Positions 872 through 61,684 of a stretch of DNA of 64,000 nucleotides are shown in pieces (the first letter of the stretch is position 1; the number at the start of each line of letters is the position of its first letter). The notes below the pieces were generated by a model. The model was not told where the DNA came from. It did no database searches and worked only from the letters and a program-made list of their open reading frames with translations. This DNA is from Acidobacteriota bacterium (GTDB lineage Bacteria; Acidobacteriota; Vicinamibacteria; Fen-336). A program made the translations under genes and the position numbers. Where the stretch lies: assembly GCA_003223555.1 (NCBI GenBank), contig QHVM01000086.1, positions 4,596-68,595 on the forward strand, given 5' to 3'.

Positions 872-892
872 GAACGAGCGGGGCGGCTCCGG

Positions 893-2008: not shown

Positions 2009-2072
2009 CAGAAACGCGGAATGATACCAAGGCTCGCCCCCGCGGGCGGCCTCATGCTAGGCTCCGCTCGCT

Positions 2073-20452: not shown

Positions 20453-20457
20453 GAGCA

Positions 20458-21228
20458 ATGTTCCGGCTCGACGGCAAGGTCGCCGCGGTGACGGGGGCCG
20501 GCTCCGGCATCGGCGAGGCGATCGCCCGGCTCTTCGCCGGCCAGGGCGCGGTCGTCCAGGCCCTGGACGTCGACGAGCGGGCGGCCTGCGCCACCGCGGA
20601 GAGGATCACCCGGGAGGGCGGCCGCGCCGACGCCCGCCACTGCGACGTCGGCGATGCGGCCGGCGTCCAGGCCGTGTTCGCCGCGATCGCCGGAGAGCGC
20701 GGCCGGCTCGACATCCTGGTCAACAATGCCGGCATCGCCCACGTGGGCACCATCGAGACCACCGCCGAGGCCGACTTCGACCGCGTTTTCCGCGTCAACG
20801 TCAAGGGGATCTATCTCTGCGCGCAGGCGGGCGTGCGGCAGATGCTGAAGCAGGGCGGGGGGGTGATCCTCAACATGGCGTCCACCGCCGCCCACGTCGG
20901 CATCCCCGACCGCTTCGCCTACTCGATGAGCAAGGGCGCCGTGCACACGATGACCATGTCGATCGCCGCCGATTACGTGAAGAAGAACATCCGCTGCAAC
21001 TGCATCTCTCCCGCGCGGGTCCACACGCCGTTCGTGGACGGCTACCTCGCCAAGAACTATCCGGGCCGCGAGGAGGAGATGTTCCGGACGCTCTCCGAGG
21101 CCCAGCCCATCGGCCGGATGGGCCGGCCGGACGAGGTGGCGGCCCTGGCCCTCTACCTCTGCTCGGACGAGGCGTCGTTCGTCACCGGTCACGCCTATCC
21201 CATCGACGGAGGAGTGCTGGCGACATGA
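20458..21228 (+). CDS. SDR oxidoreductase (candidate 2-keto-3-deoxy-L-fuconate 4-dehydrogenase)
   Basis: TGAGSGIG, NNAG and YSMSKGAV (YxxxK) motifs. It is translationally coupled to the FAH-family gene downstream. The pathway role is inferred from context. Confidence 0.85.
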   Translation: MFRLDGKVAAVTGAGSGIGEAIARLFAGQGAVVQALDVDERAACATAERITREGGRADARHCDVGDAAGVQAVFAAIAGERGRLDILVNNAGIAHVGTIETTAEADFDRVFRVNVKGIYLCAQAGVRQMLKQGGGVILNMASTAAHVGIPDRFAYSMSKGAVHTMTMSIAADYVKKNIRCNCISPARVHTPFVDGYLAKNYPGREEEMFRTLSEAQPIGRMGRPDEVAALALYLCSDEASFVTGHAYPIDGGVLAT

Positions 21229-22082
21229 AGCTCATCCGTTTCGGCGAGCCGGGACGGGAGAAGCCCGGCGTGGCGCTCCCGGACGGGACGCGCGTGGACG
21301 TCTCCGCCGCGGTCCCGGACTTCGACGAGGGCTTCTTCGGCGGCGACGGTCTGGCCCGGCTCGCCGCGTGGCTGGAGAAGAACGGGGACAAGGCCCCCCT
21401 GGTGCGGCGCGGGGAGCGGCGGGGGCCGCCGATCCGCCGGCCGAGCAAGATCATCTGCGTCGGTCTCAACTTCCGCGACCATGCCGCGGAGACGGGAGCC
21501 GAGCTGCCGAAGGAGCCGGTCATCTTCTTCAAGTCCACGACGGCCCTCGTGGGGCCGAACGATCCGCTGGTGATGCCCCGCGGGGCGACCAAGGTGGACT
21601 GGGAGGTGGAGCTGGCGGTCGTGATCGGCAAGACCGCGCGCTACGTGACGGAGGCGCAGGCCTACGAGCACGTGGCCGGGTACGCGCTGCACAACGACTA
21701 CTCGGAGCGCAGCTTCCAGCTCGAGCGGGGCGGGCAGTGGGTCAAGGGCAAGAGCGCCGACACGTTCGCGCCGCTCGGGCCGTACCTGGCCACCCGGGAC
21801 GAGGTATCCGACCCCCATCGCCTGCCGATGTGGCTCAAGGTCAACGGCGCGTACCGGCAGCGTAGCACCACCGCGAACATGGTCTTCGGCGTGCCGGCGC
21901 TCGTCAGCTACCTGAGCCAGTTCATGACGCTGCTGCCGGGTGACCTCATCAGCACCGGCACGCCGGCCGGCGTGGGCCTGGGCATGAAGCCGCAGCCCGT
22001 GTACTTGAAGCCGGGCGACGTCGTCGAGCTGGGCATCGAGGGCCTGGACGAGCAGCGACAGGAAGTGGTGCCTTCCCGGTGA
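21225..22082 (+). CDS. fumarylacetoacetate hydrolase family protein (candidate 2,4-diketo-3-deoxy-L-fuconate hydrolase)
   Basis: FAH-fold motifs: KIICVGLNFRDHAAE, VDWEVELAVVIGK, GKSADTF and STGTPAGVG. It has an ATGA overlap with the upstream SDR. Confidence 0.85.
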   Translation: MKLIRFGEPGREKPGVALPDGTRVDVSAAVPDFDEGFFGGDGLARLAAWLEKNGDKAPLVRRGERRGPPIRRPSKIICVGLNFRDHAAETGAELPKEPVIFFKSTTALVGPNDPLVMPRGATKVDWEVELAVVIGKTARYVTEAQAYEHVAGYALHNDYSERSFQLERGGQWVKGKSADTFAPLGPYLATRDEVSDPHRLPMWLKVNGAYRQRSTTANMVFGVPALVSYLSQFMTLLPGDLISTGTPAGVGLGMKPQPVYLKPGDVVELGIEGLDEQRQEVVPSR

Positions 22083-22459
22083 CGCGCTACGTGATGGCGG
22101 TCGACCTGAAGGATGACCCGCCGGGCATCGCCGAATACCGCCGCCACCACCGACGGATCTGGCCGGAGGTCCGCGACAGCCTGCGGCGGGTCGGCGTGCG
22201 GCGCATGGACATCTACCAGATCGAGCGCCGGCTGGTGATGGTCATGGACACCAGGGACGGCTTCGACCTCCGGCGCAGCTTCGCCGTCCATGCCGCGTCC
22301 CACCCGCGGTGCGCCGAGTGGGAGGAATTGATGAAGACCTTCCAGCAGGCGCCGCCCGGAGCGGCGCCGGGACGCCTCTGGACGCCGATGGTGCCGATCT
22401 TCCACCTCGAGCGCGGGCCGCGGTCCTCGCGAAAAGCCCGGCGGCGCCGCTCCCGATGA
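22079..22459 (+). CDS. L-rhamnose/L-fucose mutarotase family protein
   Basis: 126 aa. The segment LKDDPPGIAEYRRHHRRIWPEVRDSLRRVGVRRMDIY matches the RhaM-type mutarotase pattern. It has a GTGA overlap with the FAH gene. Confidence 0.8.
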   Translation: MTRYVMAVDLKDDPPGIAEYRRHHRRIWPEVRDSLRRVGVRRMDIYQIERRLVMVMDTRDGFDLRRSFAVHAASHPRCAEWEELMKTFQQAPPGAAPGRLWTPMVPIFHLERGPRSSRKARRRRSR

Positions 22460-23190
22460 GCGATCCGGTCCAGCTCTTCCACACCTGCCTCGTCAACGAG
22501 ATCGGCCCCGAGGTGGGGATGGCCGCCGTCCGCCTGCTGGAGCGGCTGGGGCACCCGGTAGGCGTCCCTCTCGACCAGACCTGCTGCGGGCAGCCCGCCT
22601 ACAATGCCGGCTTCCACGACGAGGCCCGCTCCGCCGCGCGGCACATGCTGCGGGTGCTGTCGGCGACGGAGGGCGTCATCGTCATACCGTCAGGCTCCTG
22701 CGCCGACATGCTGGTGCACCAGTACGAGCTGCTGTTCCGCGACGAGGCCGAGTGGCGCGAGAAGGCCCATGCGATCGCCGGCCGCTGCCGGGAGCTGAGC
22801 CAGCTCCTGGCCGAGGAATGGCCGCGGATGCCGGCCGGGGCGCGCCTGAGGGCGCGCGTCGCGTATCACCCGTCCTGCCACCTGCTGCGGGGCCTGGGCG
22901 TGCGCGACGCGCCCCTCGAACTGTTGCGCGCGGTGGAGGGCGTGACGCTGGCGGAGGTCGAGGATCAGGAAGAGTGCTGCGGCTTCGGCGGGCTCTTCTC
23001 GGTGAAGCAGCCCGAGATCTCCGGCCGCATGCTGGAGCGCAAGCTGGCCGCCGTCGCGGCCTCGGGCGCCGACCGCCTGGTGAGCTGCGACCTCGGCTGC
23101 CTCATGCACCTGGCGGGCGGGCTCCGGCGACAGGGCGTGGGCCTCGCGGTCCAGCATCTGGCCGAGCTGCTCGACGAGGCGCTGCCTTGA
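22456..23190 (+). CDS. lutA: lactate utilization protein A, (Fe-S)-binding CCG-domain oxidoreductase
   Basis: Two CCG motifs (DQTCCGQPAYNAG and EECCGFGGLFS) and length fit LutA. It has an ATGA overlap with the mutarotase gene. Confidence 0.85.
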   Translation: MSDPVQLFHTCLVNEIGPEVGMAAVRLLERLGHPVGVPLDQTCCGQPAYNAGFHDEARSAARHMLRVLSATEGVIVIPSGSCADMLVHQYELLFRDEAEWREKAHAIAGRCRELSQLLAEEWPRMPAGARLRARVAYHPSCHLLRGLGVRDAPLELLRAVEGVTLAEVEDQEECCGFGGLFSVKQPEISGRMLERKLAAVAASGADRLVSCDLGCLMHLAGGLRRQGVGLAVQHLAELLDEALP

Positions 23191-24761
23191 GCGCGGTCCC
23201 CCCCTTCGTCGAGCGCGTACGCTCGGCGCTCGGCGACGAACGGCTCCACGTGGCGCTGGGCCGGGCGACCGAGGCGCTGCGCTCGCGCCGCGCGAGCGCC
23301 TTCGCCTCGCTGGAAGACTCGGACCGGGTGCGCGACCTCGCCCGGAAGGCCAAGCTGGAGGTGCTGGCCGACCTCGCCTCGCAGCTCCAGCGCTTCGAGG
23401 AGCGCCTCGTCGCCAACGGCGTCGAGGTCCACTGGGCGGAGACCGGCGAGGAGGCCAACCGGCTGGTCCTGGAGATCGCCCGGCGGCACGGGGTGAAGCG
23501 CATCGTCAAGTCGAAGTCCATGGCGACCGAGGAGACGCACCTGAACCACGCGCTGGAGCGGGCGGGGATGGACGTCGTCGAGACCGACCTCGGCGAGTAC
23601 ATCGTCCAGCTCAACCAGGACCGGCCCTCGCACATCATCCTTCCGATCATCCACCTGACGCGCGAGGACGTGGGAGCGGTCATGCACCGGCGCATCCAGG
23701 TGCCGCTCTCCGACGATCCCCGGACGCTGGCCGGCTTCGCCCGCGCCAAGCTGCGCGAGGAGTTCCTGCGGGCCGACATGGGGATCACCGGGGCCAACTT
23801 CGGCGTCGTGGAGACGGGGACGATCTGCCTGGTGACCAACGAAGGCAACGGCCGCATGGTGACGACGCTGCCCCGCGTGCACGTCGCGGTGATGGGGATC
23901 GAGAAGCTGGTGCCGACGCTGGAGGACCTCGACCTCTTCCTGAGGCTGCTGGCCCGGTCGGCCACCGGGCAGAAGATCACGACCTACACCACCCTGCTCC
24001 GGGGCCCCCGGCGGCCCGGCGACGAGTGCGGCCCAGAGGCGATGCACGTCATCCTGCTCGACAACGGCCGGAGCCGGCTCCTGGCCGGCGACGACGCCGA
24101 GATCCTGGGCTGCATCCGTTGCGGGGCCTGCCTGAACGCGTGCCCGATCTACAAGAGCATCGGCGGCCACGCCTACGGCGATACCTACCCTGGCCCGGTG
24201 GGGGCGATCGTCACTCCGGGGCTGCGCGGGTTGCACGGCTGGAGCGAGCTGCCCGCGGCCAGCACGCTCTGCGGCGCGTGCCGTGACGTCTGCCCGGTGC
24301 GGCTCGACATCCCGCGGATGCTTCTCGGCCTGCGCCGGGAGACCGTGCGTACCGAGAAGACGCCGCTCGGCCTGCGGCTGGGCCTGAAGGCCTTCGGCTG
24401 GATCGCCCCGCGGCCGAAGCTGTACCGCGCCGCCGCCGCCGCCGCCCGCCGGCTGGTGCGCGCGCGGGCCCGCGAGGGCTGGGTGCGGCGGCTCCCGGGC
24501 CTGGGTGGAGGCTGGACGCAGGCGAGGGACCTCCGGGCCCCCGCCGCGACCACGTTTCAAGAGCAGTGGACCCACAGACAACAGACGGCGCGAGCGACGG
24601 GATCCACTCCCGGCGCGAGCGCGGGGGGTGCGGGGGGTGCGGGCGTGCGTCGCCAGCAAGCCCACAAGCCAGAAGCTGCGAGCGGAGCGGGATTGACTCC
24701 CGCGGAGCGAGCGGGGGGTCCGGGGGGTGCGGCGCAGCACCCCCCGGCTCGAAGAAGATGA
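23187..24761 (+). CDS. lutB: lactate utilization protein B (4Fe-4S iron-sulfur protein), with a C-terminus extended through repeat copies
   Basis: TTG start overlapping the lutA stop. LUD-type domain (GITGANFGVVETGTICLVTNEGNGRM) and ferredoxin cysteines (CIRCGACLNACP, CGACRDVCP). The final ~65 codons read through repeat DNA. Confidence 0.85.
   Translation: MSAVPPFVERVRSALGDERLHVALGRATEALRSRRASAFASLEDSDRVRDLARKAKLEVLADLASQLQRFEERLVANGVEVHWAETGEEANRLVLEIARRHGVKRIVKSKSMATEETHLNHALERAGMDVVETDLGEYIVQLNQDRPSHIILPIIHLTREDVGAVMHRRIQVPLSDDPRTLAGFARAKLREEFLRADMGITGANFGVVETGTICLVTNEGNGRMVTTLPRVHVAVMGIEKLVPTLEDLDLFLRLLARSATGQKITTYTTLLRGPRRPGDECGPEAMHVILLDNGRSRLLAGDDAEILGCIRCGACLNACPIYKSIGGHAYGDTYPGPVGAIVTPGLRGLHGWSELPAASTLCGACRDVCPVRLDIPRMLLGLRRETVRTEKTPLGLRLGLKAFGWIAPRPKLYRAAAAAARRLVRARAREGWVRRLPGLGGGWTQARDLRAPAATTFQEQWTHRQQTARATGSTPGASAGGAGGAGVRRQQAHKPEAASGAGLTPAERAGGPGGAAQHPPARRR
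24590..24657 (+). repeat. double-hairpin intergenic repeat, degenerate copy A1
   Basis: GCGAGCGACGGGATCCACTCCCGGCGCGAGCGCGGGGGGTGCGGGGGGTGCG... Hairpin 1 is retained (CGGGA-TCCAC-TCCCG). The 3' arm of hairpin 2 has decayed. Confidence 0.6.
24678..24754 (+). repeat. double-hairpin intergenic repeat, copy A2
   Basis: GCGAGCGGAGCGGGATTGACTCCCGCGGAGCGAGCGGGGGGTCCGGGGGGTGCGGCGCAGCACCCCCCGGCTCGAAG. It ends 3 nt before the lutC ATG. Confidence 0.85.
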
Positions 24762-25387
24762 CTGCGCGCGAGAGCATCCTCTCCCGCGTCGCCGCGGCCC
24801 AGCGCACGGCGCGGCTGCCTGCCCGGCCGGTGGCGGAGCCGATGGCGGCGGCCACGCGCAGCCGGTCGCACTGCCTGGAGCGCTTCGGCCAGGAGCTGGC
24901 GGCCCTGGGCGTGGGCTGCCACGTCGAGACGACCGCCGAGGCCGTCCGCGAGCGCGTTCGTTGCCTGGTCGAAGGCCAGCGCGTCCTGAGCTGGGACGCC
25001 GAGCACCTGCCGTACGAAGCGGGAGCCGTGCTCACGGCCGCCAGCCGCGGATCGAGCCCGCGCGCGGAGCAGGCGGCGGCCGAGGTGGGAGTGACCGGCT
25101 GCGATGGCGCGATCGCCGAGACCGGCACGCTCGCGCTCCTCTCGGGGCGCGGGCGCTCGCGCGCGGTCTCGCTCCTGCCGCCCGTGCACGTGGCCATCGT
25201 GAGGCCGGAAGACCTCTGCTTCAGCATGGGCGAGTTCTTCGCCCGCCACGGCGCGCGCATGAGCCAGGAGCCCTCCTGCACGTTCGTCACCGGCCCCAGC
25301 CGGACGGCCGACATCGAGCTGACGCTGACCCTCGGCGTGCACGGCCCCGGCCGGGTCGTCGTCGTCATCGGCCCCGAACCGGCATGA
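24758..25387 (+). CDS. lutC: lactate utilization protein C (LUD domain)
   Basis: MTARESILSRV.. start with an ATGA overlap with the lutB stop. The segments GVTGCDGAIAETGTLAL and PPVHVAIV match LutC/YkgG. Confidence 0.8.
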   Translation: MTARESILSRVAAAQRTARLPARPVAEPMAAATRSRSHCLERFGQELAALGVGCHVETTAEAVRERVRCLVEGQRVLSWDAEHLPYEAGAVLTAASRGSSPRAEQAAAEVGVTGCDGAIAETGTLALLSGRGRSRAVSLLPPVHVAIVRPEDLCFSMGEFFARHGARMSQEPSCTFVTGPSRTADIELTLTLGVHGPGRVVVVIGPEPA

Positions 25388-25396
25388 GCAACAGGA

Positions 25397-25472
25397 GCGA
25401 GCGGAGCGGGATTCACTCCCGCGCAGCGAGCGGGGGGTCTGGGGGGTGCGACGCAGCACCCCCCAGCTCAAC
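25397..25472 (+). repeat. double-hairpin intergenic repeat, copy B
   Basis: GCGAGCGGAGCGGGATTCACTCCCGCGCAGCGAGCGGGGGGTCTGGGGGGTGCGACGCAGCACCCCCCAGCTCAAC, lying between lutC and the amidohydrolase gene. Confidence 0.85.
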
Positions 25473-25478
25473 AAGGGG

Positions 25479-26327
25479 ATGAAGGTCGACTCTCACCAGC
25501 ACTTCTGGAAGTACGAACCGCGCGAGTACGCCTGGATCGTCGAGAGCATGGGCGCGCTCAAGCGCGACTTCCTGCCCGCCGACCTCCAGCCCGAGATGGC
25601 GCGGGCGGGCGTGGCGGCCTGCGTGGCCGTCCAGGCCCGCTCGACCCTCGAGGAGACCGCGTGGCTGCTCGAGCTGGCCGATCGCCATCCCTTCGTCGCC
25701 GGCGTCGTGGGCTGGGTCGACCTCCGCTCGCCGGAGGCGCGCGCGCAACTCCAGCGCTTCGCGGCCCACCCGCGCCTCGTCGGCATCCGGCACATCGTCC
25801 AGGACGAGCCCGACGACCGCTTCCTTCTCCGCCCCGACTTCCTCCGCGGGATCGGCCTCCTGGAGGAGTTCGGCCTGGCCTACGACATCCTCATCTACCC
25901 GCGCCACCTGCAGGTCGCCACGGACCTCGTGCGGATGTTCCCGCGGCAGCGCTTCGTGCTCGACCACCTGGCCAAGCCCCGGATCCGAGCGGGTGAGGTC
26001 ACGGCGTGGGCGGGCGCCCTGTCGGCGCTGGCCCGCCAGCCCCACGTGATGGGCAAGCTGTCCGGCCTCGTGACCGAGGCGGATGGGCAGGGCTGGCAGC
26101 CCGAGCAGATCCGTCCCTACCTGGACATCGCCTTCGAATGCTTCGGGGCCGACCGGCTCATGATCGGGTCCGACTGGCCGGTGTGCACGCTCGCCGCGGA
26201 CTACGGGCGCACGCTGGGGCTGGTGACCGAGTACCTCGAGGGACGGCCGCCGGCGGAGCGCGACGCCGTGCTGGGAGGCAACGCGCAGAGGTTCTGGAAC
26301 CTCCAGGTCAAGGAGCACAGCCCATGA
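25479..26327 (+). CDS. amidohydrolase-2 family lactonase (candidate L-fucono-1,5-lactonase)
   Basis: MKVDSHQHFW start (metal-binding HxH), internal VLDHLAKP, and C-terminal GSDWPV. It resembles the amidohydrolase-family sugar lactonases. Track ORF 25446 begins inside the repeat; the ATG at 25479 is preferred. Confidence 0.8.
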   Translation: MKVDSHQHFWKYEPREYAWIVESMGALKRDFLPADLQPEMARAGVAACVAVQARSTLEETAWLLELADRHPFVAGVVGWVDLRSPEARAQLQRFAAHPRLVGIRHIVQDEPDDRFLLRPDFLRGIGLLEEFGLAYDILIYPRHLQVATDLVRMFPRQRFVLDHLAKPRIRAGEVTAWAGALSALARQPHVMGKLSGLVTEADGQGWQPEQIRPYLDIAFECFGADRLMIGSDWPVCTLAADYGRTLGLVTEYLEGRPPAERDAVLGGNAQRFWNLQVKEHSP

Positions 26328-27316
26328 TGAAGAGTGCGGCGATGAGCGCGGCGGCGATGGCGCTGCTGGCGGGGCTGGCTGCGTGCGGCGGCCGGCGCGA
26401 GGCGGGGCGGACCACGATCGCCGTCATCCCCAAGGGCACGTCCCACGTGTTCTGGCAGAGCATCCACGCCGGAGCGGCGCGGGCCGCCGCGGAGCTGAAC
26501 GTCGACATCGTCTGGCGCGGCCCGCTCCGCGAGGACGACCGCGACTCGCAGGTCTCGGAGGTGGAGGACTTCGTCAGCCGGGGCGTGTCGGGCATCGTCC
26601 TGGCGCCGCTCGACGAGAGCGCGCTGGCGGTGCCGGTGGCGAGCGCCGTGCAGCGCGGCATCCCGGTGGTGATCATCGACTCGGGGCTCAAGGGGGAGGG
26701 CTACGTCAGCTTCGTGGCCACGGAAAACTACCAGGGAGGCCGGCTGGGAGGCGAGGAGCTGGCGAAGAGGCTGGGCGGCAAGGGCAAGGTGGTCCTGCTC
26801 CGCTACAGCGAAGGCTCGGACAGCACCAACAAGCGCGAGCAGGGCTTCCTGGACGCGATGAAGGCCAGCCCGGGCATCGAGGTCGTCAGCTCCAACCAGT
26901 ACGGCGGGGCCGATGTCGAGAGCGCCTACAAGAAGAGCGAGTCGCTCCTCAGCAACTACAAGAAAGCGGACGGGCTGGTGATCGACGGCATCTTCTGCCC
27001 CAACGAGTCGACCAGCTTCGGCATGCTGCGCGTGCTCCAGGACGACGGCTGGGCGGGCAAGGTCCGCTTCGTGGGCTTCGACAGCTCCGACAACCTGGCC
27101 AAGGGGCTCCACGACGGCCAGATCGACGCGCTCGTCCTGCAGGACCCCGTTCGCATGGGCTATCTCGGGGTCAAGACCATGGTCGCGCATCTCCAGGGCC
27201 AGCCGGTGGAGAAGCGCATCGACACCGGCGTCCACGTCGTCACGAAGGAGAACATGGACACCCCGGAGATGAAGGAGCTGGTGCACCCGGACCTGTCGAA
27301 ATGGCTGAAGCCGTAG
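26324..27316 (+). CDS. sugar ABC transporter substrate-binding lipoprotein (ribose/monosaccharide-binding family)
   Basis: Lipobox LLAGLAAC followed by a periplasmic-binding-protein type I fold (IAVIPKGTSHVFWQS, VVIIDS, FVGFDSS). It has an ATGA overlap with the amidohydrolase stop. Confidence 0.85.
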   Translation: MMKSAAMSAAAMALLAGLAACGGRREAGRTTIAVIPKGTSHVFWQSIHAGAARAAAELNVDIVWRGPLREDDRDSQVSEVEDFVSRGVSGIVLAPLDESALAVPVASAVQRGIPVVIIDSGLKGEGYVSFVATENYQGGRLGGEELAKRLGGKGKVVLLRYSEGSDSTNKREQGFLDAMKASPGIEVVSSNQYGGADVESAYKKSESLLSNYKKADGLVIDGIFCPNESTSFGMLRVLQDDGWAGKVRFVGFDSSDNLAKGLHDGQIDALVLQDPVRMGYLGVKTMVAHLQGQPVEKRIDTGVHVVTKENMDTPEMKELVHPDLSKWLKP

Positions 27317-28733
27317 CTCCGCGCTTCCGGATGCGCGGCATCCGGAAGGCCTTCGGCGCCACCGTCGCCCTCGACGGCGTGGACCTGGAGGTCGCGCCCG
27401 GCGAGGTGTGCGCGCTCGTGGGCCAGAACGGCGCCGGCAAGAGCACGCTCATGGCCGTCCTCTCCGGCGCCCTCGCCCCCGACGGCGGCGAGATGACGCT
27501 CGACGGCGCGCCGTACCGGCCGCGCGACCCGCTGGAGGCCAGGCAGGCCGGGGTGGCGATGATCTACCAGGAGCTGTCGCTGGCTCCGCACCTCTCCGTG
27601 ATGGAGAACGTCGCGCTGGGCATGGAGCCCACCCGGCTCGGCCTGATGCGGTGGGACGAGACCCGGCGGCGGGCCCGGGCGGCGCTGGCCCAGCTCGAGC
27701 ATGCCGAGATCGCCCCCGAGACGCCGGTGTCGCGGCTCTCGGTGGCCGGCCAGCAGCTCGTGGAGATCGCGCGCGCGTTCGCCGTCGGGTGCCGGGTGCT
27801 GGTGCTGGACGAGCCCACGAGCAGCCTCGCCCAGGCCGACGCCCGGCGGCTCTTCGAGCTGGTGGCCCGGCTGAAGGACCAGGGCCATGCGATCGTCTAC
27901 ATCTCGCACTTCCTGGAGGAGGTGAAGCAGGTCGCGGACCGCTTCGTCGTCCTGCGCGACGGTCGCAACGCCGGTGGGGGGCGCACGGCCGACGCCTCGC
28001 CGCGCGAGATCGTGGCGATGATGGTCGGGTCCGCGGTGGGAGAGGTGTATCCCCGCTCCGCGCGGCGGCGAGGCGAGCCCATCCTGGAGGTCGGCGGCTG
28101 GGGACCCGGCTCGGCTCCGCTGACGCTGCACCGCGGGGAAGTCGTGGGCATCGCGGGCCTGCTCGGCGCCGGACGGACGAGCCTGTCAAGGCGATCGAGG
28201 GCTTCCACTCCCCGACCCGCCGCTGGCGGCAAGGCGTGGGCTTCCTCAGCGAGGACCGCAAGGACGAGGGCCTGGCGCTGGGGCTGAGCGTGGCCGACAA
28301 CATGACGCTGTCCCGTCTGGCCGGGCTGGGGCCGGGGCCGCTCGTCCTGCCCCGGCCCCAGGCGCGGGCCGCGGCCGGCCTCATCCAGCGGCTGGGGATC
28401 CGCTGCCGCGGGGCGGCCCAGGCGGTGCGCGAGCTGTCGGGCGGCAACCAGCAGAAGGTGGCCCTCGCGCGCCTGCTTCATCACGACGCCGACCTGCTGC
28501 TGCTCGACGAGCCGACGCGCGGCATCGACGTCGCGAGCAAGACGCAGATCTACGCCCTCGTCGACGCGCTCGTCGCCGATCCGGGAGAGGGACGGCCGGC
28601 CCGCGCGGTGCTCTTCGTGAGCAGCTACTTCCCGGAGCTGCTCGGCCTCTCCGACCGGATCGCGGTGATGTCCTCCGAGCTGGACGAGCACCGTCTGATC
28701 CTGGAAGCGGCGGGCACGAAGGGCGCGGCGTGA
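27301..28733 (+). pseudogene. sugar ABC transporter ATP-binding protein (two fused ATPase domains), reading frame broken near 28179-28183
   Basis: Domain 1 (GQNGAGKST, LSVAGQQ, VLVLDEPTS) and the second Walker A (GLLGAGRT) are in one frame. The rest (VGFLSEDRKDEGL, LSGGNQQK, LLLLDEPTRGID) is in the 27408 frame. About 16 residues after Walker A are missing. Confidence 0.8.
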
Positions 28734-29683
28734 AGGCGCGCGAGCTGCTGAGCCGGGGCGGGCCCTTCCTCGGCCTGGTGCTGGTGAGCGCCCTCTTCGG
28801 CGGGCTGGTCGGCCCCCAGTTCTTCACGCCGGGGAACCTGGAGCTGATCGCCCGCCAGACCGCGATCGTGGGCATGGCCGCGCTGGGGATGACGCTGGTG
28901 ATCGCGTCGGCGGGCATCGACCTGTCGGTCGGATCGGTGATCTCGCTGAGCACGGTGGTGGTCGCTCTCCTGCTCCGCCACGCGGCGAGCCCCGCCTTGG
29001 CCGCCCTGGCGGCGGTGGCGGCGGCCGCGGTGTGCGGCCTCGTCACCGGCCTGCTCGTCACCGGGCTCCGGGTCGTCCCCTTCATCGTTACGCTGGGGAT
29101 GATGCTGCTCGTCCGCGGGGCGGCCAAGGGACTGGCCGAGGAGCGCCGCATCGAGGCGCCGGTCACGTGGCTGAACGACCTGCTGCGCACGCACGCGGCG
29201 GGGGTCGGGGTGCTGCTGCCCACCGGCATCTGGGTGCTGCTCGCGATGGCGCTGCTGGTCGCCGGCGTGCTGCGCTACACCCGCTTCGGGCGCCACCTGC
29301 TGGCCATCGGCTCCAACGAGCGCACCGCGCGGCTGTGCGGGGTGCGGGTGGGGCGCTGCACGGTGGCGGTCTACGCGATCGAGGCCGCCCTGACCGGGCT
29401 GGCCGGCGTGATGCAGTTCGCGAAGCTCTCGGTCGGGGACCCGACGGTCGCGGTGGGGCTCGAGCTCGACGTCATCGCGGCGGTGATCATCGGAGGGGGC
29501 AGCCTGACCGGCGGCCGGGGCACCGTCTTCGGCACGCTGGTCGGGGCGGTGCTCATGACCGTGATCCAGATCGGATGCTCGCAGCGCGGGCTTCCCAACT
29601 GGGTGCAGCAGATCGTGACCGGAGGAGTGATCGTGGCCGCGGTGGCCATCGACCACTGGCGCCAGCGCGCCCAGGCCGCGTAG
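28730..29683 (+). CDS. sugar ABC transporter permease (RbsC/branched-chain type)
   Basis: 317 aa, about 9-10 TM. The segments IDLSVGSV and GGGSLTGGRGTVFGTLVGA are typical of this permease family. It has a GTGA overlap with the ATPase stop. Confidence 0.85.
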   Translation: MKARELLSRGGPFLGLVLVSALFGGLVGPQFFTPGNLELIARQTAIVGMAALGMTLVIASAGIDLSVGSVISLSTVVVALLLRHAASPALAALAAVAAAAVCGLVTGLLVTGLRVVPFIVTLGMMLLVRGAAKGLAEERRIEAPVTWLNDLLRTHAAGVGVLLPTGIWVLLAMALLVAGVLRYTRFGRHLLAIGSNERTARLCGVRVGRCTVAVYAIEAALTGLAGVMQFAKLSVGDPTVAVGLELDVIAAVIIGGGSLTGGRGTVFGTLVGAVLMTVIQIGCSQRGLPNWVQQIVTGGVIVAAVAIDHWRQRAQAA

Positions 29684-29713
29684 CCGTGGAGCTGGAAGCA
29701 ACGAACAACGGCC

Positions 29714-29795
29714 GCGAGCGGAGCGGGATTCACTCCCGCGTAGCGAGGGGGGGTCTGGGGGGCGCGCCGCTAGCGCCCCCCAGCTCAAAGACGAT
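29714..29795 (+). repeat. double-hairpin intergenic repeat, copy C1 (first of a tandem pair)
   Basis: GCGAGCGGAGCGGGATTCACTCCCGCGTAGCGAGGGGGGGTCTGGGGGGCGCGCCGCTAGCGCCCCCCAGCTCAAAGACGAT. Confidence 0.85.
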
Positions 29796-29875
29796 GCGGA
29801 GCGGGATTCACTCCCGCGTAGCGAGGGGGGGTCTGGGGGGCGCGCCGCTAGCGCCCTCCAGCTCAAAGACGATGC
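29796..29875 (+). repeat. double-hairpin intergenic repeat, copy C2 (second of a tandem pair, 78-bp period)
   Basis: GCGGAGCGGGATTCACTCCCGCGTAGCGAGGGGGGGTCTGGGGGGCGCGCCGCTAGCGCCCTCCAGCTCAAAGACGAT. It is near-identical to C1, with one mismatch in the 3' arm of hairpin 2. Confidence 0.85.
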
Positions 29876-29880
29876 GGGGA

Positions 29881-30666
29881 TCAGTCGGCGGTGGCCTTGA
29901 GCGAGCCGGTCGTGATGCCGCCGTCGACGAGCAGGGTCTGGCCGGTGACGTAGGCGCTCGCCTCCGAGGCGAGAAACACGATCGCGCCGTCGAGGTCGTC
30001 GGGCAGCCCCGGGCGGTGGAGGGGGATGCGCTCGCGGAGGTACTCGACCCAGCTCGGGTTCTCGTAGAGGACCTTGTTCTGCTCGGTCCGGAACCAGCCG
30101 GGGGCGAGGCAGTTGACGTTGATGCCGTGGCGCCCCCACTCGTCGGCCAGGCTCATCGTGAGCTGCTTGACCCCCCCCCGGCTGGCGCAGTAGGGAGCGA
30201 TGCCGCCGTAGCCGAAGACCGACGTCACCGAGCCGATGTTGACGATGCGGCCGTAGCCGCGGGGGATCATCCGCCGCGCCACCGCCTGGGCCACGAAGAA
30301 GGTGCCGCGGAGGTTGGTGTCGAGCACCTTGTTCCAGTCCTCCCAGGCCACCTCGACCGAAGGCTTGCGCACGTTGCAGCCCGCGTTGTTGACGAGGATG
30401 TCGACCTTGCCGAAGGCGGCCTCGGCCTCCTCGGCCATGTTCCGGATGCTGGCCTCGTCGCGCACGTCGAGGGAGAGGGAGGCCGCGCCCCGGCCGAGGG
30501 CGCGGAGCTCGCGCGCGAAGCTCTCGGTGTCCTCGCGCCGCCGGGCGGTCACGACCAGGTCCGCTCCGGCCTGGGCGAGGGCGCGCGCGAGGTACTGGCC
30601 GAGGCCGCGGCTGGCGCCGGTGACCAGGGCGACGCGGCCCGAGAGATCGAAGAAGTTCTTGACCAT
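29881..30666 (-). CDS. SDR oxidoreductase (gluconate-5-dehydrogenase / KduD-like)
   Basis: 261 aa. TGASRGLG, NNAG and YCASRGGV (YxxxR in place of YxxxK) motifs are typical of a classical SDR. Confidence 0.85.
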   Translation of the reverse strand: MVKNFFDLSGRVALVTGASRGLGQYLARALAQAGADLVVTARRREDTESFARELRALGRGAASLSLDVRDEASIRNMAEEAEAAFGKVDILVNNAGCNVRKPSVEVAWEDWNKVLDTNLRGTFFVAQAVARRMIPRGYGRIVNIGSVTSVFGYGGIAPYCASRGGVKQLTMSLADEWGRHGINVNCLAPGWFRTEQNKVLYENPSWVEYLRERIPLHRPGLPDDLDGAIVFLASEASAYVTGQTLLVDGGITTGSLKATAD

Positions 30667-30693
30667 GGGACCTCCGACTCGCCCCGGCGTCGC

Positions 30694-31704
30694 TCAGGCG
30701 TTGGGCTTGAGGATGACCTTCATGAGGCCGGGCTCCCGGTGGTGGAGCCGGCGGAACCAGAGCGGGCCTTCCTCGAGGGGGGCGGTGGCCGAGATGAAGC
30801 GGTCCACCCGGACCTTCCCGGACGCGATCAGCGCGAGGGACTCCGGGTACTCGCCGTTCGAGGCGCAGGAGCCCTGCAGGCGGATCTGCCGCGTCACCAC
30901 CGACTGGATCGGGAGGGTGACCTCCGGGGCCATCAGGCCGACGAGCGTCACGCATCCGCCTTTGCGGACGGCGGCGATGGAGGCGCGCACGGTGGCCTCG
31001 ATGCCGACCGCCTCGAGGGCCACGTCGGCCCCGCGGCCGCCGGTGAGCGAGCGGATCGCCTCCACCGAGTCGGCCGTCCGGGAGTTGACGGCGTGGGTGG
31101 CGCCCAGCTCGCGGGCCAGCGCGAGGCGGTCGTCCTCGATGTCGACCGCCACGATGCGGCGGACGGAGGCGGCTTTCAGGACCTCCCCGAAGACCGCCAC
31201 CGTGTCGTCCGGGGCCACGGGCGTGAGGTTCCGCGCGTGGACCGCCACGGAGACCGGCTCCGCCATCGCCGCGTGCTCGAAGCTCATCCCGGGGGGGAGC
31301 GGGTAGACGATGTGCGCGGGCACCGAGACCAGCTCCGCGAAGGCCCCGTCCTGCCGGTAGTCCTCGCACGAGACCCCGAGCACGCGCCGGTCGTCGCAGA
31401 GGTTGGCCAGGCCGCGCTGCGAGAAGAAGCTCTCCGGGTTGTATACCGTGGAGTCGAACGTGACCCGGTCTCCGGGCTTCAGCCCTTCGACCCGCGGCCC
31501 GACCCGCTCGACGAGGCCGGCCGCCTCGTGCCCCATGACGACCGGCGGCCGGCGGCGGCCGGTGCTGCCGTCCAGGCCGTGGATGTCGCTGCCGCAGATG
31601 CCGCACGCCATCACCCGCACCAGCACGTCGCGTGGTCCCACCGCGGGCTCGGGCCGGTCCTGCACCTCCAGCTCGCCGTACGCCTTCAGCACCAGCGCCC
31701 TCAT
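30694..31704 (-). CDS. zinc-dependent medium-chain alcohol/polyol dehydrogenase
   Basis: MRALVLK.. start (AAGGGA 6 nt upstream; track ORF begins 18 nt earlier). Motifs CGICGSDIH and GHEAAG, plus the Rossmann stretch VAVFG. Confidence 0.85.
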   Translation of the reverse strand: MRALVLKAYGELEVQDRPEPAVGPRDVLVRVMACGICGSDIHGLDGSTGRRRPPVVMGHEAAGLVERVGPRVEGLKPGDRVTFDSTVYNPESFFSQRGLANLCDDRRVLGVSCEDYRQDGAFAELVSVPAHIVYPLPPGMSFEHAAMAEPVSVAVHARNLTPVAPDDTVAVFGEVLKAASVRRIVAVDIEDDRLALARELGATHAVNSRTADSVEAIRSLTGGRGADVALEAVGIEATVRASIAAVRKGGCVTLVGLMAPEVTLPIQSVVTRQIRLQGSCASNGEYPESLALIASGKVRVDRFISATAPLEEGPLWFRRLHHREPGLMKVILKPNA

Positions 31705-31778
31705 GGTGTCCCTTACTACCACGTTCCGCGTCCGCTCCGCCAGCGCAGCGGGCGCCCTTGCCAGGAGAGAGATCGCCC

Positions 31779-32805
31779 ATGACGAACCGCCGCGCGTTCC
31801 TCGCCGCCACCCTCACGTCGACCGCGGGCGCCGTGCTCGCCCGGGCCGCGCGGGCCGACGAGCGCGACTGGTCGGGGGTCCGCCCGGTCCGCTATCCGGA
31901 TCCCGACGTGGTCGCGCTCGACCCGCGCTTCCAGAAATACAAGCTCGGCAACGCCGCCATCCAGCGCCTGCACACCGGCATGGCCTGGGCGGAGGGTCCG
32001 GCCTGGAGCACCGGCGGGCGTTACCTGGTATGGAGCGACATCCCCAACGACGTCCTGCTCCGGCGTCTCGACGAGGACGGCCACGTGGTCCGGCAACGTC
32101 AACGGCAACACGTTCGACTTCGAGGGGCGGCAGATCTCGTGCGAGCACGCCAACCGGCGCGTGGTCCGCCACGAGCACTCGGGGGCGGTGACCGTGCTCG
32201 CCGAGCGCTGGAACGGCAAGCCGCTCAATGCCCCCAACGACGTCGTGGTCCATCCCGACGGGGGGATCTGGTTCACCGACCCCGGCTACGGCAGCATGGT
32301 GAACTACGAGGGGCACAAGGGAGACCTGCAGGTGAAGGAGGCGGTCTACCGGATCGATCCCCAGGGAGGGCGGATGGACCTCGTCTCCGACGAGCTGAAG
32401 AAGCCGAACGGACTCTGCTTCTCGCCCGACCAGCGGAAGCTCTACGTCGTCGACACTGGAGTCTCGCCGCCGGGGATCATCCAGGTGTACGACGTCGTCG
32501 ACGGCCGCCGGTTGTCCGGCAGCCGGCTCTTCGCGAAGATGGAGCTGAGCGGCAAGCAGGGCGGCTCCGACGGCGTCCGCACGGACGTCGACGGGAACTT
32601 GTGGGCGAGCGCGGGCTGGGGCGGCGACGGGTTCGACGGCGTGCACGTGTTCGCGCCTGACGGGAATCGCATCGGCCTCATCCGCCTGCCCGAGACCGCC
32701 TCCAACGTCTGCTTCGGCGGGGCCAAGCGGAACCGCCTGTTCGTGACCGCCAGCCAATCGCTCTACGCGCTCTACGTCGAGACCCAGGGCGCCCACATCG
32801 CGTGA
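31779..32805 (+). pseudogene. SMP-30/gluconolactonase/LRE-like lactonase with Tat signal, reading frame broken near 32088
   Basis: The Tat-type start MTNRRAFLAATL and the segment AEGPAWSTGGRYLVWSDIPNDVLLRRLDEDGHV are in one frame. SGNVNGNTFDFEGRQISCEHANRRVVRHE..NAPNDVVVHPDGGIWFTDP..SNVCFGG is in the 32161 frame. About 6 residues are missing at the junction. Confidence 0.8.
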
Positions 32806-32816
32806 GAGGCACTGCT

Positions 32817-32892
32817 GCGAGCGGAGCGGGATTCACTCCCGCGAAGCGAGCGGGGGGTCTGGGGGGTGCGCCGCTAGCACCCCCCAGCTAAA
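32817..32892 (+). repeat. double-hairpin intergenic repeat, copy D
   Basis: GCGAGCGGAGCGGGATTCACTCCCGCGAAGCGAGCGGGGGGTCTGGGGGGTGCGCCGCTAGCACCCCCCAGCTAAAAC. It ends 2 nt before the SDR ATG. Confidence 0.85.
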
Positions 32893-32894
32893 AC

Positions 32895-33677
32895 ATGGAA
32901 TATTCCGACAAGGTCGTCATCGTCACCGGGGGAAGCAAGGGGATCGGCGAAGGCTGCGTGCGCGTCTTCGTCGAGGCGGGGTCCAGGGTCGTCTTCTGCG
33001 CGCGCAGGCGGGAGGCGGGGGAGGCGCTGGCCCGAGAGGTCACCGCGAAAGGCCCCGGGGAGGCGCACTTCGTCGCCTGCGATGTCTCGAAGATGGAGGA
33101 CATCCGCCGTCTCGTCGAAGGCACCGTCGAGCGCTACGGGCGCATCGACTGTCTCATCAACAACGCCGGCTGGCATCCACCCCACAAGCCGATCGACGGC
33201 TTCACGGTGGATGAGTTCCGCCGGCTCCTCGACCTGAACCTGGTGAGCATCTTCGCCGCCTGCCAGCTCGCCCTGCCTCACCTCCGGAAGACGAAGGGCA
33301 ACATCATCAACCTGTCGAGCCTGGTCGGCCGCATGGGCCAGCTCCACGCCACCACCTACGTGGCGACCAAGGGGGCCGTCACCGCCTTCACCAAGGCGCT
33401 GGCCATCGACGAGGCGGCCCACGACGTCCGTGTGAACTCGGTGTCCCCGGGGAACATCTACACGCCGCTGTGGCAGGAGGCGATCGACGCCGCGCCCGAT
33501 CCCGCCCGCTGCCGCGCCGACGGGGAGGCGGCCCAGGTCCTGGGCCGCATGGGGACGATCGAGGAGACGGGGCGCCTCTGCCTGTTCCTGGCCGCGGAGG
33601 CCACCTTCACGACCGGCGTCGACCACGTCCAGTCGGGGGGCGCCGAGCTGGGCTACGGCCGGAAGACGCGTCATTGA
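32895..33677 (+). CDS. SDR oxidoreductase (candidate L-fucose 1-dehydrogenase)
   Basis: 260 aa. TGGSKGIG, NNAG and YVATKGAV motifs. The overall sequence resembles HSD17B14-type SDRs, which have been reported to oxidise L-fucose. The role is inferred from context. Confidence 0.8.
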   Translation: MEYSDKVVIVTGGSKGIGEGCVRVFVEAGSRVVFCARRREAGEALAREVTAKGPGEAHFVACDVSKMEDIRRLVEGTVERYGRIDCLINNAGWHPPHKPIDGFTVDEFRRLLDLNLVSIFAACQLALPHLRKTKGNIINLSSLVGRMGQLHATTYVATKGAVTAFTKALAIDEAAHDVRVNSVSPGNIYTPLWQEAIDAAPDPARCRADGEAAQVLGRMGTIEETGRLCLFLAAEATFTTGVDHVQSGGAELGYGRKTRH

Positions 33678-33809
33678 GCAAGGGGGCGCTAGCGGCGCGC
33701 CCCCTTGAACCCCCGCTCGCGTCTTCCGCGGCGACGAAGTGAATTCGCCGCCGCTCATTTTGCGGGGCCGCTTCGCGGCCCCGGGGTGAGTGAATCCCGC
33801 TCCGCTCGC
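33674..33809 (-). repeat. two decayed reverse-orientation copies of the double-hairpin repeat
   Basis: The plus strand reads TTGAGCAAGGGGGCGCTAGCGGCGCGCCCCCTTGAACCCCCGCTCGC..., then GCGGGGCCGCTTCGCGGCCCCGGGGTGAGTGAATCCCGCTCCGCTCGC. This is the reverse complement of the consensus with many substitutions. A new hairpin GGGGCCGC-TTC-GCGGCCCC is present. Confidence 0.65.
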
Positions 33810-33889
33810 AGCCGTTGCTCGTTCGCCTCCACTCCTTCGCTGCGGTCTCTGCGCGTTCTCTGCGGTCTCTGCGTTCCAGCGCCGACGGC

Positions 33890-34639
33890 CTAGGTGCCCT
33901 CCTCGGTGGCGAGGGCGAGCTGGGCCAGGCGGATGTGCTCCTCCATGGCCGCGCGCGCGGACTCCCCGTCGCGGGCCCGGATGGCCTGATAGATCTTCCG
34001 GTGAGCGTCGGCGGACTCGCGCAGGTTGCGGGCCCGCTCGATCGTCACCCGCCGCTGCTCGAAGAACAGGGCGGCCACCGCCTCGATGATGGCCCCCAGC
34101 ATCGGGTTGTTGGCGGCCGCCGCCACCGCCCGGTGAAAGCGCAGGTCGTGGTCGAGGAAGGTCTGCGGCTGATGGAGCGCCGAATACATGCCGGTGACCT
34201 CGTCCGAGAGCGTCGCGATCTGCTCCGCCGACGCCCTCTCCGCGGCCAGCGACGCCGACCCGGCCTCCAGCACGCGGCGCACCTCCCAGAGGCCCCCCAG
34301 ATCCAGTCCGTGGAGGGAGGCGATGAGCCGCAGCGGCTCGCTGACGAGCGTCGGCGGACCGGCGGTGATGAACGTGCCGGCCCCCCGGCGCGTCTGCACG
34401 ACGCCCATGGCGGCCAGCGAGCGCAGGCCGGCCCGTACGCTCGTGCGGCTGACACCGACCTGCGAGGCCAGGTCGCGCTCCGAGGCGAGCCGGTCACCCG
34501 GACGGAGCGCGCCCCGTTCGATGAGGCCGCTCACGTGGAGCATCACCTGCTCGGCGGCCGCCGCGTCCTGGGAACCGTCGTTTCTGAGCGCGGAGGCCGC
34601 CATATCTAGCCGTTTACCTAAGCCCATGCTGTACCACAT
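33890..34639 (-). CDS. GntR/FadR-family transcriptional regulator
   Basis: The wHTH segment PGDRLASERDLASQVGVSRTSVRAGLRSLAAMGVVQTRRGAGTFI is followed by an FCD-type helical C-terminal domain. An alternative start (MAASALR) lies at 34603. Confidence 0.85.
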   Translation of the reverse strand: MWYSMGLGKRLDMAASALRNDGSQDAAAAEQVMLHVSGLIERGALRPGDRLASERDLASQVGVSRTSVRAGLRSLAAMGVVQTRRGAGTFITAGPPTLVSEPLRLIASLHGLDLGGLWEVRRVLEAGSASLAAERASAEQIATLSDEVTGMYSALHQPQTFLDHDLRFHRAVAAAANNPMLGAIIEAVAALFFEQRRVTIERARNLRESADAHRKIYQAIRARDGESARAAMEEHIRLAQLALATEEGT

Positions 34640-34850
34640 GTCAAGAGGTCCATCTACTGGTCCAACCTGACGATCGCATTTTCGGTATTGACACGTCAGT
34701 AAAGGCCGTGATACAGCCTTGAGTATAGAATCGGTCCCATAAGGAATCAGAGGCAGTCTTGAGTGGTTGGTCCACTCGGTTGCGATCGCGCTGGGCTTCG
34801 GCCCGCTTCCGGCGATCCGTGCCGGGGAAGGACTTCAGGAGGAGGGCCTG

Positions 34851-61650: not shown

Positions 61651-61684
61651 GGCGAAGTGTTCCCTCCCCGGTGGCCGGCGGAGG

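Follow-up and report, generated by a model that had tools for sequence, protein, structure and literature searches.

Small, non-autonomous, structured repeats are a known kind of bacterial DNA. The closest described systems are the repetitive extragenic palindromic (REP) sequences and bacterial interspersed mosaic elements (BIME; REPIN) of Proteobacteria, and the Rickettsia palindromic elements (RPE). The former are short, GC-rich hairpin repeats of high copy number, mostly extragenic and located near stop codons, which form tandem clusters and mosaics of modules and lack terminal inverted repeats and, as a rule, target duplications; the REP itself is 20-40 nt long and imperfectly palindromic, and at 0-2 nt 5' of its hairpin foot it carries the conserved GT[AG]G (PMC6006769, PMC3733652). 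RPEs are structured repeats of ~100 nt, present between genes and also in frame within essential genes, where they add a short hydrophilic peptide. Here we describe a repeat family identified in a 64,000-nt stretch of an Acidobacteriota bacterium (Vicinamibacteria; contig QHVM01000086.1, positions 4,596 to 68,595), referred to below as the window. The repeated element is ~85-95 nt long and consists of a leader, two unlike hairpins and a tail.

This element proliferates in many Acidobacteriota genomes, and among orthologous sites some carry it and others do not. Its insertion can leave a target duplication, copies persist in frame within genes, and the hairpin-2 end lies close against gene boundaries, in an orientation that depends on the transcriptional context. 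We therefore regard it as probably a family of short, non-coding, non-autonomous structured mobile elements behaving like REP/BIME and RPEs, and the window copies as likely insertions into a fucose-type sugar operon at previously zero-length junctions.

A covariance model (R1), built from 59 copies of the window and other genomes and run on the whole window with filters off, recognized five strong forward matches, one degenerate forward match and one reverse-strand composite of ~145 nt, all within 24.58-33.81 kb. A repeat search of the window distinguished a five-copy forward family (D15; starts 24682, 25401, 29718, 29796 and 32821), and the hairpin-1 19-mer had 6 matches at no more than 3 mismatches, vs. 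0.07 in shuffled sequences. The copies and an adjacent module are as follows:

24579-24667, forward strand: degenerate copy within the LutB frame (R1 21.9 bits, E = 0.0046), with hairpin 1 = CGGGATCCACTCCCG and a decayed hairpin 2
24669-24757, forward strand: full copy at the lutB/lutC junction (R1 93.1 bits)
25388-25476, forward strand: full copy at the lutC/amidohydrolase junction (R1 91.5 bits)
29705-29793, forward strand: full copy, tandem unit 1 (R1 88.2 bits), between the permease stop (29683) and the convergent stop (29881) of a short-chain dehydrogenase/reductase (SDR) gene
29794-29871, forward strand: tandem unit 2, 5'-truncated and without leader (R1 59 bits; 78-nt period)
32808-32897, forward strand: full copy between the lactonase and SDR genes (R1 94.4 bits; lactonase stop GTGA at 32802-32805, SDR start at 32895)
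33669-33812, reverse strand: composite variant of ~145 nt (R1 40.6 bits at 33669-33760, plus a hairpin-1-only match at 33778-33805)
33840-33875, reverse strand: accessory module 5' of the composite, consisting of a CGCAGAGRCCGCAGAG doublet

The full copy at the lutB/lutC junction (predicted fold -53.4 kcal/mol, z = -4.2) has a tail that runs up to the ATGA stop/start overlap (24758-24761) and encodes the C-terminal end of LutB, ...AASGAGLTPAERAGGPGGAAQHPPARRR*. Both this copy and the degenerate one are part of the LutB open reading frame (ORF; 23187-24761), which continues through them. An earlier note on this stretch, whose consensus, two stem-loops and 78-bp tandem period were all correct, held that every copy fills a gap between genes; this does not apply to the copies at 24579-24757, which lie inside the LutB ORF and are translated through, and it also overlooks insertion into formerly zero-length junctions with overlapping stop and start codons. 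Its placement of the forward copies 2-6 nt before the next ATG was accurate (starts 24758, 25479 and 32895). The copy at 25388-25476 is bounded by ATGA on both sides (25384-25387 and 25479-25482), and a 32-codon ORF (25384-25482) spans it, joining both ATGA sites. Tandem unit 2 shares 99% identity with unit 1 and has one hairpin-2 mismatch (CCCTCC); the same tandem pair is carried by L101, a 13.7-kb contig of the window organism itself, which reads CCCCCC at that place. The copy at 32808-32897 has a predicted fold of -51.7 kcal/mol.

The reverse-strand feature, previously taken for two decayed copies, is one intact composite variant (predicted fold -83.5 kcal/mol), which aligns over its length with L016, a locus of the same architecture in metagenome-assembled genome (MAG) AA35. 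It is composed of: (i) a leader with hairpin 1a (33784-33812), (ii) an extra GC hairpin (33763-33783), (iii) hairpin 1b, GCGGCGACGAA/TTCGCCGCCGC (33728-33754), and (iv) hairpin 2 (33679-33707), and its tail adjoins the SDR stop codon (33675-33677). Hairpin 2 of the composite is enclosed by an 11-nt perfect inverted repeat, CGGAAGACGCG (33660-33670)/CGCGTCTTCCG (33718-33728), which pairs the last SDR codons (GRKTRH*) with an internal segment of the composite; in L016 this segment is present and the complementary flank is absent.

Over the rest of the 64 kb, outside 24.5-33.9 kb, R1 found no match better than E = 0.037, in agreement with the earlier note, which saw no copy in the remaining ~55 kb. 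Copies occupy 5 of the 11 gene junctions in the 24.5-33.9 kb stretch vs. 0 of 34 elsewhere in the window (hypergeometric ~4e-4). The clustering in this stretch is therefore real, though the family is genome-wide, and locus L073 shows comparable local clustering. The idea that the repeat is confined to the sugar locus is valid within the window only, since in other genomes copies occur in a tRNA-tuf-secE-nusG cluster, after the tmRNA gene and inside dnaE.

In the alignment, the element comprises, from 5' to 3', a leader ((A)GGCAACGGGCTGC), hairpin 1, a G-run, hairpin 2 and a short A-rich tail. Hairpin 1 is layered: a variable outer stem is followed by a purine internal loop, GGA/GNA (or GA/GA), and by the near-invariant GCGGGA-TTCAC-TCCCGC, an inner stem and loop that were held fixed by the search pattern. 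Variants of the inner stem located nearby in the same loci keep both the pairing and the TTCAC loop (GCGGAA/TTCCGC, GCGCGA/TCGCGC, GGCGAA/TTCGCC and GTGCGA/TCGCAC). The outer stem covaries; in many copies it is GCGAGC/GCGAGC with tandem G.A mismatches, and in others GCGCGC, CGCGGC/GCCGCG, GCGAGC/GCTCGC, CGCCCAC/GTGGGCG or TCCGCCC/GGGCGGA. Hairpin 2 is an 11-bp G/C stem with compensatory changes in 8 of the 11 pairs and 97% of alignment cells paired. The covariation of the whole structure was reached by 0 of 500 shuffles, and slid-register controls were 41-52% paired vs. 87.5% in the real register.

Single full copies of the window have predicted folds of -50 to -53 kcal/mol (z of about -4 to -5), and the tandem unit without leader -46 kcal/mol. 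The forward strand is predicted to fold better than the reverse (-49.9 vs. -42.3 kcal/mol); the strand preference judged from G.U vs. A.C mismatches in hairpin 2 was not significant (14 vs. 7). Unpaired columns on the forward strand are 37% G and 21% C, and the tail after hairpin 2 is variable in length and sequence, with low information content. Readings of the hairpins as tRNA-like, T-loop, anticodon-loop, attC or hammerhead structures were rejected by inspection.

The distribution of the family was analyzed by scanning species-representative genomes with the exact hairpin-1 19-mer pattern, and the matched blocks constituted a 100-locus set (710 kb). At least 100 genome blocks matched, originating from ~30 MAGs among the matches listed. 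These listed matches are mostly of Acidobacteriota (Vicinamibacteria, Thermoanaerobaculaceae, one Terriglobia MAG and many unclassified), while six Actinomycetota MAGs (Gaiellales and relatives) account for seven loci, and one MAG is labelled "Deltaproteobacteria". The 710 kb of matched blocks contain 141 R1 copies, so that the earlier proviso, by which a lack of copies beyond the locus would point to a purely local duplication, does not apply. In control loci picked only for a homologous amidohydrolase gene (697 kb of metagenome sequence), R1 had four matches: three in L101, the window organism's contig, and a single one in the remaining 684 kb, in L106, a relative, at the same junction. Viral contigs gave three bare 19-mer matches and no R1 match, which indicates that the element is not phage-borne and that isolated 19-mer matches arise at chance level. 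The 19-mer matches in Helicobacter (a coding repeat) and in L008 and L031 (isolated, without element context) were discounted.

The repeats of Actinomycetota, of Thermoanaerobaculaceae and of the L040 type have hairpin 1 in common, including its internal loop and covarying outer stem, and differ in their downstream modules; the family is thus mosaic. The L040-type repeats form a further hairpin-1 family in Vicinamibacteria MAGs (L040:7350-7710, also L056, L061, L070 and L087, the last labelled only "Acidobacteria bacterium"), with the outer stem TCCGCCC/GGGCGGA, a GA/GA internal loop and, in L040, three tandem 156-nt units.

The family is uncatalogued, and here too the earlier proviso, by which a match to a catalogued REP/MITE family would speak against novelty, does not apply: it has no match in Rfam, Pfam, NCBIfam or the searchable literature. 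Rfam searches of the window at the gathering threshold, of 24.4-34.0 kb at E of at most 10, and of 13 loci representing all element variants at the gathering threshold returned only tRNA and tmRNA. The repeat-encoded peptide had no match in Pfam and NCBIfam, and a protein database search with it gave only 27 short, uninformative matches. Literature searches by sequence string and keywords yielded no description, and the element is absent from two REP surveys (PMC3733652, PMC6006769).

Several observations speak for mobility, among them the comparison of orthologous sites. Locus L102 has the same lutB-lutC-amidohydrolase order (75% amidohydrolase protein identity) without the element; its lutB/lutC and lutC/amidohydrolase junctions are overlapping GTGA stop/start codons, and it is exactly there that the window carries copies. 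In L106 (71% identity), the lutC/amidohydrolase junction holds a diverged copy of another subfamily (hairpin 1 GCCGAA/TTCGGC, GA/GA loop), and the same junction was therefore probably struck twice independently. In L042 (4030-4190), one copy is flanked on both sides by a perfect 35-bp direct duplication (CGAGGACACGACGATCACGTGGGAGATGGTGTGAA) covering the last codons of the upstream gene, the ribosome-binding site and the overlapping GTGA stop/start; this length far exceeds the usual target duplications of transposases. A 9-bp flanking duplication containing ATGA is present in L085, and the ATGA on either side of the window copy 25388-25476 is a possible 4-bp duplication. Flank-to-flank alignment of 80 sites gave scores equal to those of permuted controls, i.e., no general excess of target duplications. 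In another assembly, contig L184 begins inside the window copy 32808-32897, at window position 32835.

Copies inserted in frame use one common reading frame. They are located in DnaE (L030 and L047), in an ABC exporter (L084, three tandem units) and in the LutB of the window, and all encode ...AASGAGFTPAERAGGxGGAxQHPP... The insertion in DnaE (DNA polymerase III alpha) contributes ~28 residues (QQAASGAGFTPAERAGGLGGAAQHPPEDI) and occupies the same site in two Acidobacteriota MAGs (L030:5862-5950 and L047:7375-7463), just before the motif RFGL(S/A)A(L/I)(K/R)NVGEG. The core element has no terminal inverted repeats, its leader and tail not being complementary, and an inverted-repeat search within copies revealed only hairpin 2, plus hairpin 1b and the extra GC hairpin in the composite. 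No Y1/HUH motif (HUH...Y) was found in six-frame translations of the window and the 100 loci, and clustering of the proteins encoded beside copies showed no recurring gene family.

The placement of copies was determined relative to genes called by a crude GC3-based caller, which was checked against the window; the R1 model includes 10 nt of the tail. The median gap to the neighboring gene is -3 nt at the 3' end of the element and 38 nt at its 5' end, and the 3' end is the nearer one at 41 sites vs. 11 (sign test p = 3.6e-5). The hairpin-2 (3') end lies within ~10 nt of a gene start, a stop, or a tRNA or tmRNA end, the neighbor being a start codon when the element is upstream in sense orientation and a stop codon when it is downstream in antisense. 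In L073, the tails adjoin the 5' ends of tRNA-Thr and tRNA-Trp. This locus (77-3734) has six sense copies in ~4 kb of a conserved tRNA-Thr/tuf/tRNA-Trp/secE-nusG-rplK cluster, with two of the tails stopping a few bases from the 5' ends of the mature tRNAs. In L013 (5602-6059), a Thermoanaerobaculaceae-type variant adjoins the 3' CCA end of tmRNA without a spacer, and the junction sequence is identical in L039 and L048 (three MAGs).

Nineteen copies lie between convergent genes and 3 between divergent ones. Tight co-directional junctions have 13 sense and 3 antisense copies, vs. 5 sense and 11 antisense where the spacer is long (Fisher p = 0.011). In the window, the four intra-operon copies are sense and the copies at two convergent boundaries point their tails to the stop codon. 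Shared orientation within a locus, used as a proxy for replication-strand bias and counted by eye, was concordant in 4 loci and discordant in 9, i.e., without bias. No promoter or intrinsic-terminator consensus was found at the copies.

For an element that is probably mobile, the following mechanism may be considered. An enzyme whose gene lies at another site of the genome would make the copies in trans and would recognize hairpin 1 of one strand in its folded, single-stranded form, much as HUH/Y1 enzymes use REP or IS200-type hairpins. Such mobilization is suggested because hairpin 1 is conserved across phyla and its purine mismatches form on one strand only, and because the element lacks inverted repeats and usually target duplications. 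Once inserted, the element would be transcribed with the host operon, and its very stable hairpins (-46 to -53 kcal/mol) would act according to orientation. In sense orientation (purine-rich RNA) it would be tolerated between cistrons, exchanging the overlapping stop/start coupling for a hairpin that lies 7-12 nt ahead of the next start codon and is followed by a purine-rich tail; a bridging ORF, e.g., 25384-25482, may restore translational coupling. In antisense orientation (pyrimidine-rich RNA), the hairpin would stand 0-9 nt after a stop codon and may close the transcription unit, as a 3'-end barrier, a terminator or a Rho-type site. The element may plausibly stabilize mRNA ends, an idea of the earlier note.

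Several points weigh against this explanation. No mobilizing gene was identified in the window and the 100 loci, and the trans-acting hairpin-binding enzyme is purely inferred. Target duplications are not general, and their sizes (4, 9 and 35 bp) fit no standard transposase; nor does any nameable mechanism account for the anchoring of the 3' end at gene boundaries. The orientation-dependent RNA effects rest on positional statistics of modest numbers from a crude gene caller, and the elements are without a U-tract and are not flagged as intrinsic terminators. Finally, the taxon labels are titles of MAG records, among which there could be mis-binned contigs.

The comparison with REP/BIME, suggested by the earlier note, is appropriate for behavior, i.e., for the short, GC-rich hairpin repeats in high copy number, their mostly extragenic location close to stop codons, the tandem arrays, the mosaic modules and the lack of terminal inverted repeats and, usually, of target duplication, with rarity between divergent genes in addition; a post-transcriptional role as a 3'-end barrier is likewise likely. 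It does not extend to membership. GT[AG]G was not found beside either hairpin foot in the 59-copy alignment, where the nearest string is GNAG, with variable N, 3' of the inner stem, and the inverted doublets that are common among REPIN/BIME copies are missing, as no opposite-strand R1 pair lies within 200 nt in the window or the 100 loci and the arrays are head-to-tail. Further differences from REP/BIME are that no REP-associated tyrosine transposase (RAYT), in REP systems a single-copy gene flanked by the repeats, was found in the window and 100 loci, that the unit is ~90 nt long with two unlike hairpins, leader and tail, that hairpin 1 is cross-phylum, and that the 3' end is anchored at gene boundaries. 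With RPEs the element shares its size, its occurrence both between genes and in frame in essential genes, and the short hydrophilic peptide added by in-frame copies; the host protein is retained in each case (DnaE of L030 and L047, the ABC exporter of L084, LutB). It differs in host phylum, which is unrelated, apparently in sequence, and in that most copies are intergenic and anchored at gene ends. No family was significant for the encoded peptide in NCBIfam/Pfam, where the inclusion of RPE models was not checked, so that the bearing of this result on RPEs is indirect.

Mycobacterial interspersed repetitive units (MIRUs) are reportedly 50-100 bp units in direct tandem arrays between operon cistrons, with short ORFs across the unit that are said to overlap the neighboring stop and start codons. 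They are not known to be built on strong conserved hairpins or to vary in orientation to transcription, and are restricted to mycobacteria. The element may be similar in its intercistronic direct tandem units and in an ORF overlapping the flanking stop and start, as at 25384-25482; unlike MIRUs, it has strong hairpins, both orientations and a majority of single copies. The MIRU-like ORF pattern is present at 25384-25482 (ATGA...ATGA), at 32802-32890 and in the LutB read-through, and open frames across the unit are expected by chance in DNA of 72% GC.

The MITEs (miniature inverted-repeat transposable elements), such as Correia elements of Neisseria and ERIC/IRU of enterobacteria, are also small and non-autonomous. 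Correia elements and ERIC/IRU are co-transcribed with their neighbors, and their folded RNA alters stability or processing, a likeness that we propose for the present element. Its core differs from MITEs in having neither terminal inverted repeats matching a parent insertion sequence (IS) nor a fixed-length target duplication; a separate module with terminal inverted repeats (doublets of CGCAGAGGCCGCAGAG) flanks the core only sometimes. Palindrome-associated transposable elements (PATEs) derived from IS200/IS605 resemble it in lacking terminal inverted repeats and target duplication, in the possibility of head-to-tail arrays and in subterminal hairpins recognized on one strand, a feature that the element here would share. 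They differ in that IS200/IS605 ends carry similar hairpins, whereas the two hairpins here are unrelated in sequence, and for our element no conserved target tetranucleotide was found and no TnpA/TnpB nearby. Two other candidates were rejected. As intrinsic (Rho-independent) terminators, no copy was flagged on either strand, hairpin 2 being followed by an A-rich tail (forward) or a C-run (reverse). As for integron attC sites, which are single long imperfect hairpins bounded by R''/R' core sites in arrays of cassettes without promoters, no such core sites (RYYYAAC...GTTRRRY) were seen by inspection of the alignment, the hairpins are two separate ones, and L102 has the same operon order without elements.

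Other origins of the repeat have to be weighed. It could be a conserved cis-regulatory or processing RNA motif selected in place rather than a selfish mobile element, hairpin 1 being the site for a conserved protein or RNase, hairpin 2 stabilizing transcript ends and each copy regulating its neighbor. This would suit the near-identity of hairpin 1 in Acidobacteriota and Actinomycetota composites while the outer stem covaries, the G.A and G.U features favoring one strand, the precise positions relative to start and stop codons and to tRNA and tmRNA ends, the persistence at the same site in dnaE and after ssrA across different genomes, and the variation of orientation with operon context. We consider it unlikely, given that both orientations are similarly frequent among all co-directional gene pairs (14 vs. 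11), that copies occur inside coding sequences and beside functionally unrelated genes, that the close orthologous operon of L102 works without copies, that tandem arrays include truncated units, that one target duplication measures 35 bp, and that no Rfam family matches; regulation in place and mobility are not mutually exclusive. The chance is equally low that the family is a divergent REP/REPIN spread by a RAYT (TnpA-REP, Y1 HUH) gene at another place of the genome. Lineage specificity and vertical inheritance are usual for REP systems, whereas hairpin 1 spans phyla, and the ~90-nt unit with two unlike hairpins, the lack of GT[AG]G as a conserved tag at 0-2 nt 5' of either foot (GNAG, which follows the inner stem, varies at N), the lack of inverted doublets or of any opposite-strand match within 200 nt, and the absence of a Y1 motif or recurrent neighbor gene in the window and 100 loci all argue in the same direction. 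Consistent with a REP origin are the numerous, extragenic, hairpin-based copies without terminal inverted repeats and usually without target duplication, the hairpin-bulge-hairpin shape known in some REP classes, and the position of copies next to stop codons, as in GTAG REPs (PMC3733652). In addition, Acidobacteria have class 3 TnpA-Y1, accompanied by atypical REP-like sequences that carry no GTAG (PMC6006769).

A retroposed small RNA, comparable to a bacterial SINE, i.e., a structured RNA ending in hairpin 2, A/G-tailed and reverse-transcribed into nicked targets, would account for the purine/A-rich 3' tail of variable length and sequence, the flanking duplications of varying length (4, 9 and 35 bp), the 5'-truncation of later units in AA35-type arrays, and the placement anchored at the tail end in an element without terminal inverted repeats. 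Such an origin appears very improbable, because no reverse transcriptase was linked to the element, most copies are without target duplication, and the upstream units of Vicinamibacteria-type arrays are 3'-truncated, not 5'-truncated. Moreover, the tail of the AA35 subfamily is partly conserved (GCTCAA) and pairs with the G-run, and is therefore not simply an added tail. That the repeat is nothing but a local duplication, a chance palindrome or an assembly artefact, as the confinement of all window copies to 9.2 kb might suggest, can practically be dismissed: many copies occur in unrelated loci and in MAGs from independent studies, the same copies are found in independent assemblies (L101, L184-186), and 6 hairpin-1 19-mers were observed where shuffles expect 0.07.

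A bolder and doubtful variant of the mobile-element explanation is that hairpin 1 (outer stem, GGA/GNA loop and GCGGGA-TTCAC-TCCCGC) might be the recognition module of an undescribed mobilization system common to Acidobacteriota and Actinomycetota, which would place different passenger modules with precision at gene boundaries (at start and stop codons and at the ends of tRNA and tmRNA), the inserted cassette serving as an orientation-dependent insulator or terminator. Its mechanism would work without inverted repeats and with occasional variable duplications (4-35 bp), and candidates may be the insertion of a single strand guided by the hairpin or the retroposition of a small RNA with a tail.

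The accessory module is a second repeat, composed of doublets of CGCAGAGGCCGCAGAG, which is present at 33840-33875 of the window and at L018:3900-4040, L071:4885-5075, L094:6750-6925, L016:7450-7495 and L065:1930-1975. In L018, two inverted doublets form ~38-nt terminal inverted repeats around a 52-nt AT-richer core, which gives a MITE-like look. In L071 and L094 the double-hairpin element lies between two inverted doublets, with the inverted copy on its 3' side, and the window, L016 and L065 have the 5' doublet alone; in the AA35 loci the same doublet lies 35-55 nt 5' of copies.

The "lut" locus (20400-34650; also L184) looks like an L-fucose-type sugar-acid pathway, with genes for an FAH-family hydrolase, lutABC-like proteins, an amidohydrolase-2 lactonase, a sugar ABC transporter, SDRs, a Zn-dependent dehydrogenase, an SMP-30 lactonase and a GntR/FCD regulator, followed downstream by a TonB-type receptor and an alpha-L-fucosidase. 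The ATPase gene of the sugar ABC transporter (27331-28733) is split over two frames (27331-28287 and 28236-28733), being either a frameshifted pseudogene or an assembly error. The direct-repeat families D1-D14 and D16-D20 (45064-63994, 3.1-kb period) are the repeated modules of the non-ribosomal peptide synthetase (NRPS) genes and are unrelated to the element.

Acidobacteriota, which rank among the most abundant bacteria in soil, are genetically poorly studied. At such a frequency, the repeat interrupts metagenome assemblies where its copies lie and can mislead gene callers, which place start codons inside hairpin 2 and give LutB and DnaE repeat-encoded peptides. It splits translationally coupled operon junctions, provides a natural marker for strain typing and exemplifies in-frame "selfish DNA" in essential genes of bacteria other than Rickettsia, and its conserved hairpin is usable as bait for a putative mobilizing enzyme or host factor. 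Although the kind of repeat is already known, two features, the cross-phylum hairpin-1 module and the one-end anchoring at gene boundaries, could hide something more novel; if this anchoring stems from the mechanism of insertion, it would represent a targeting principle not described for bacterial repeats.

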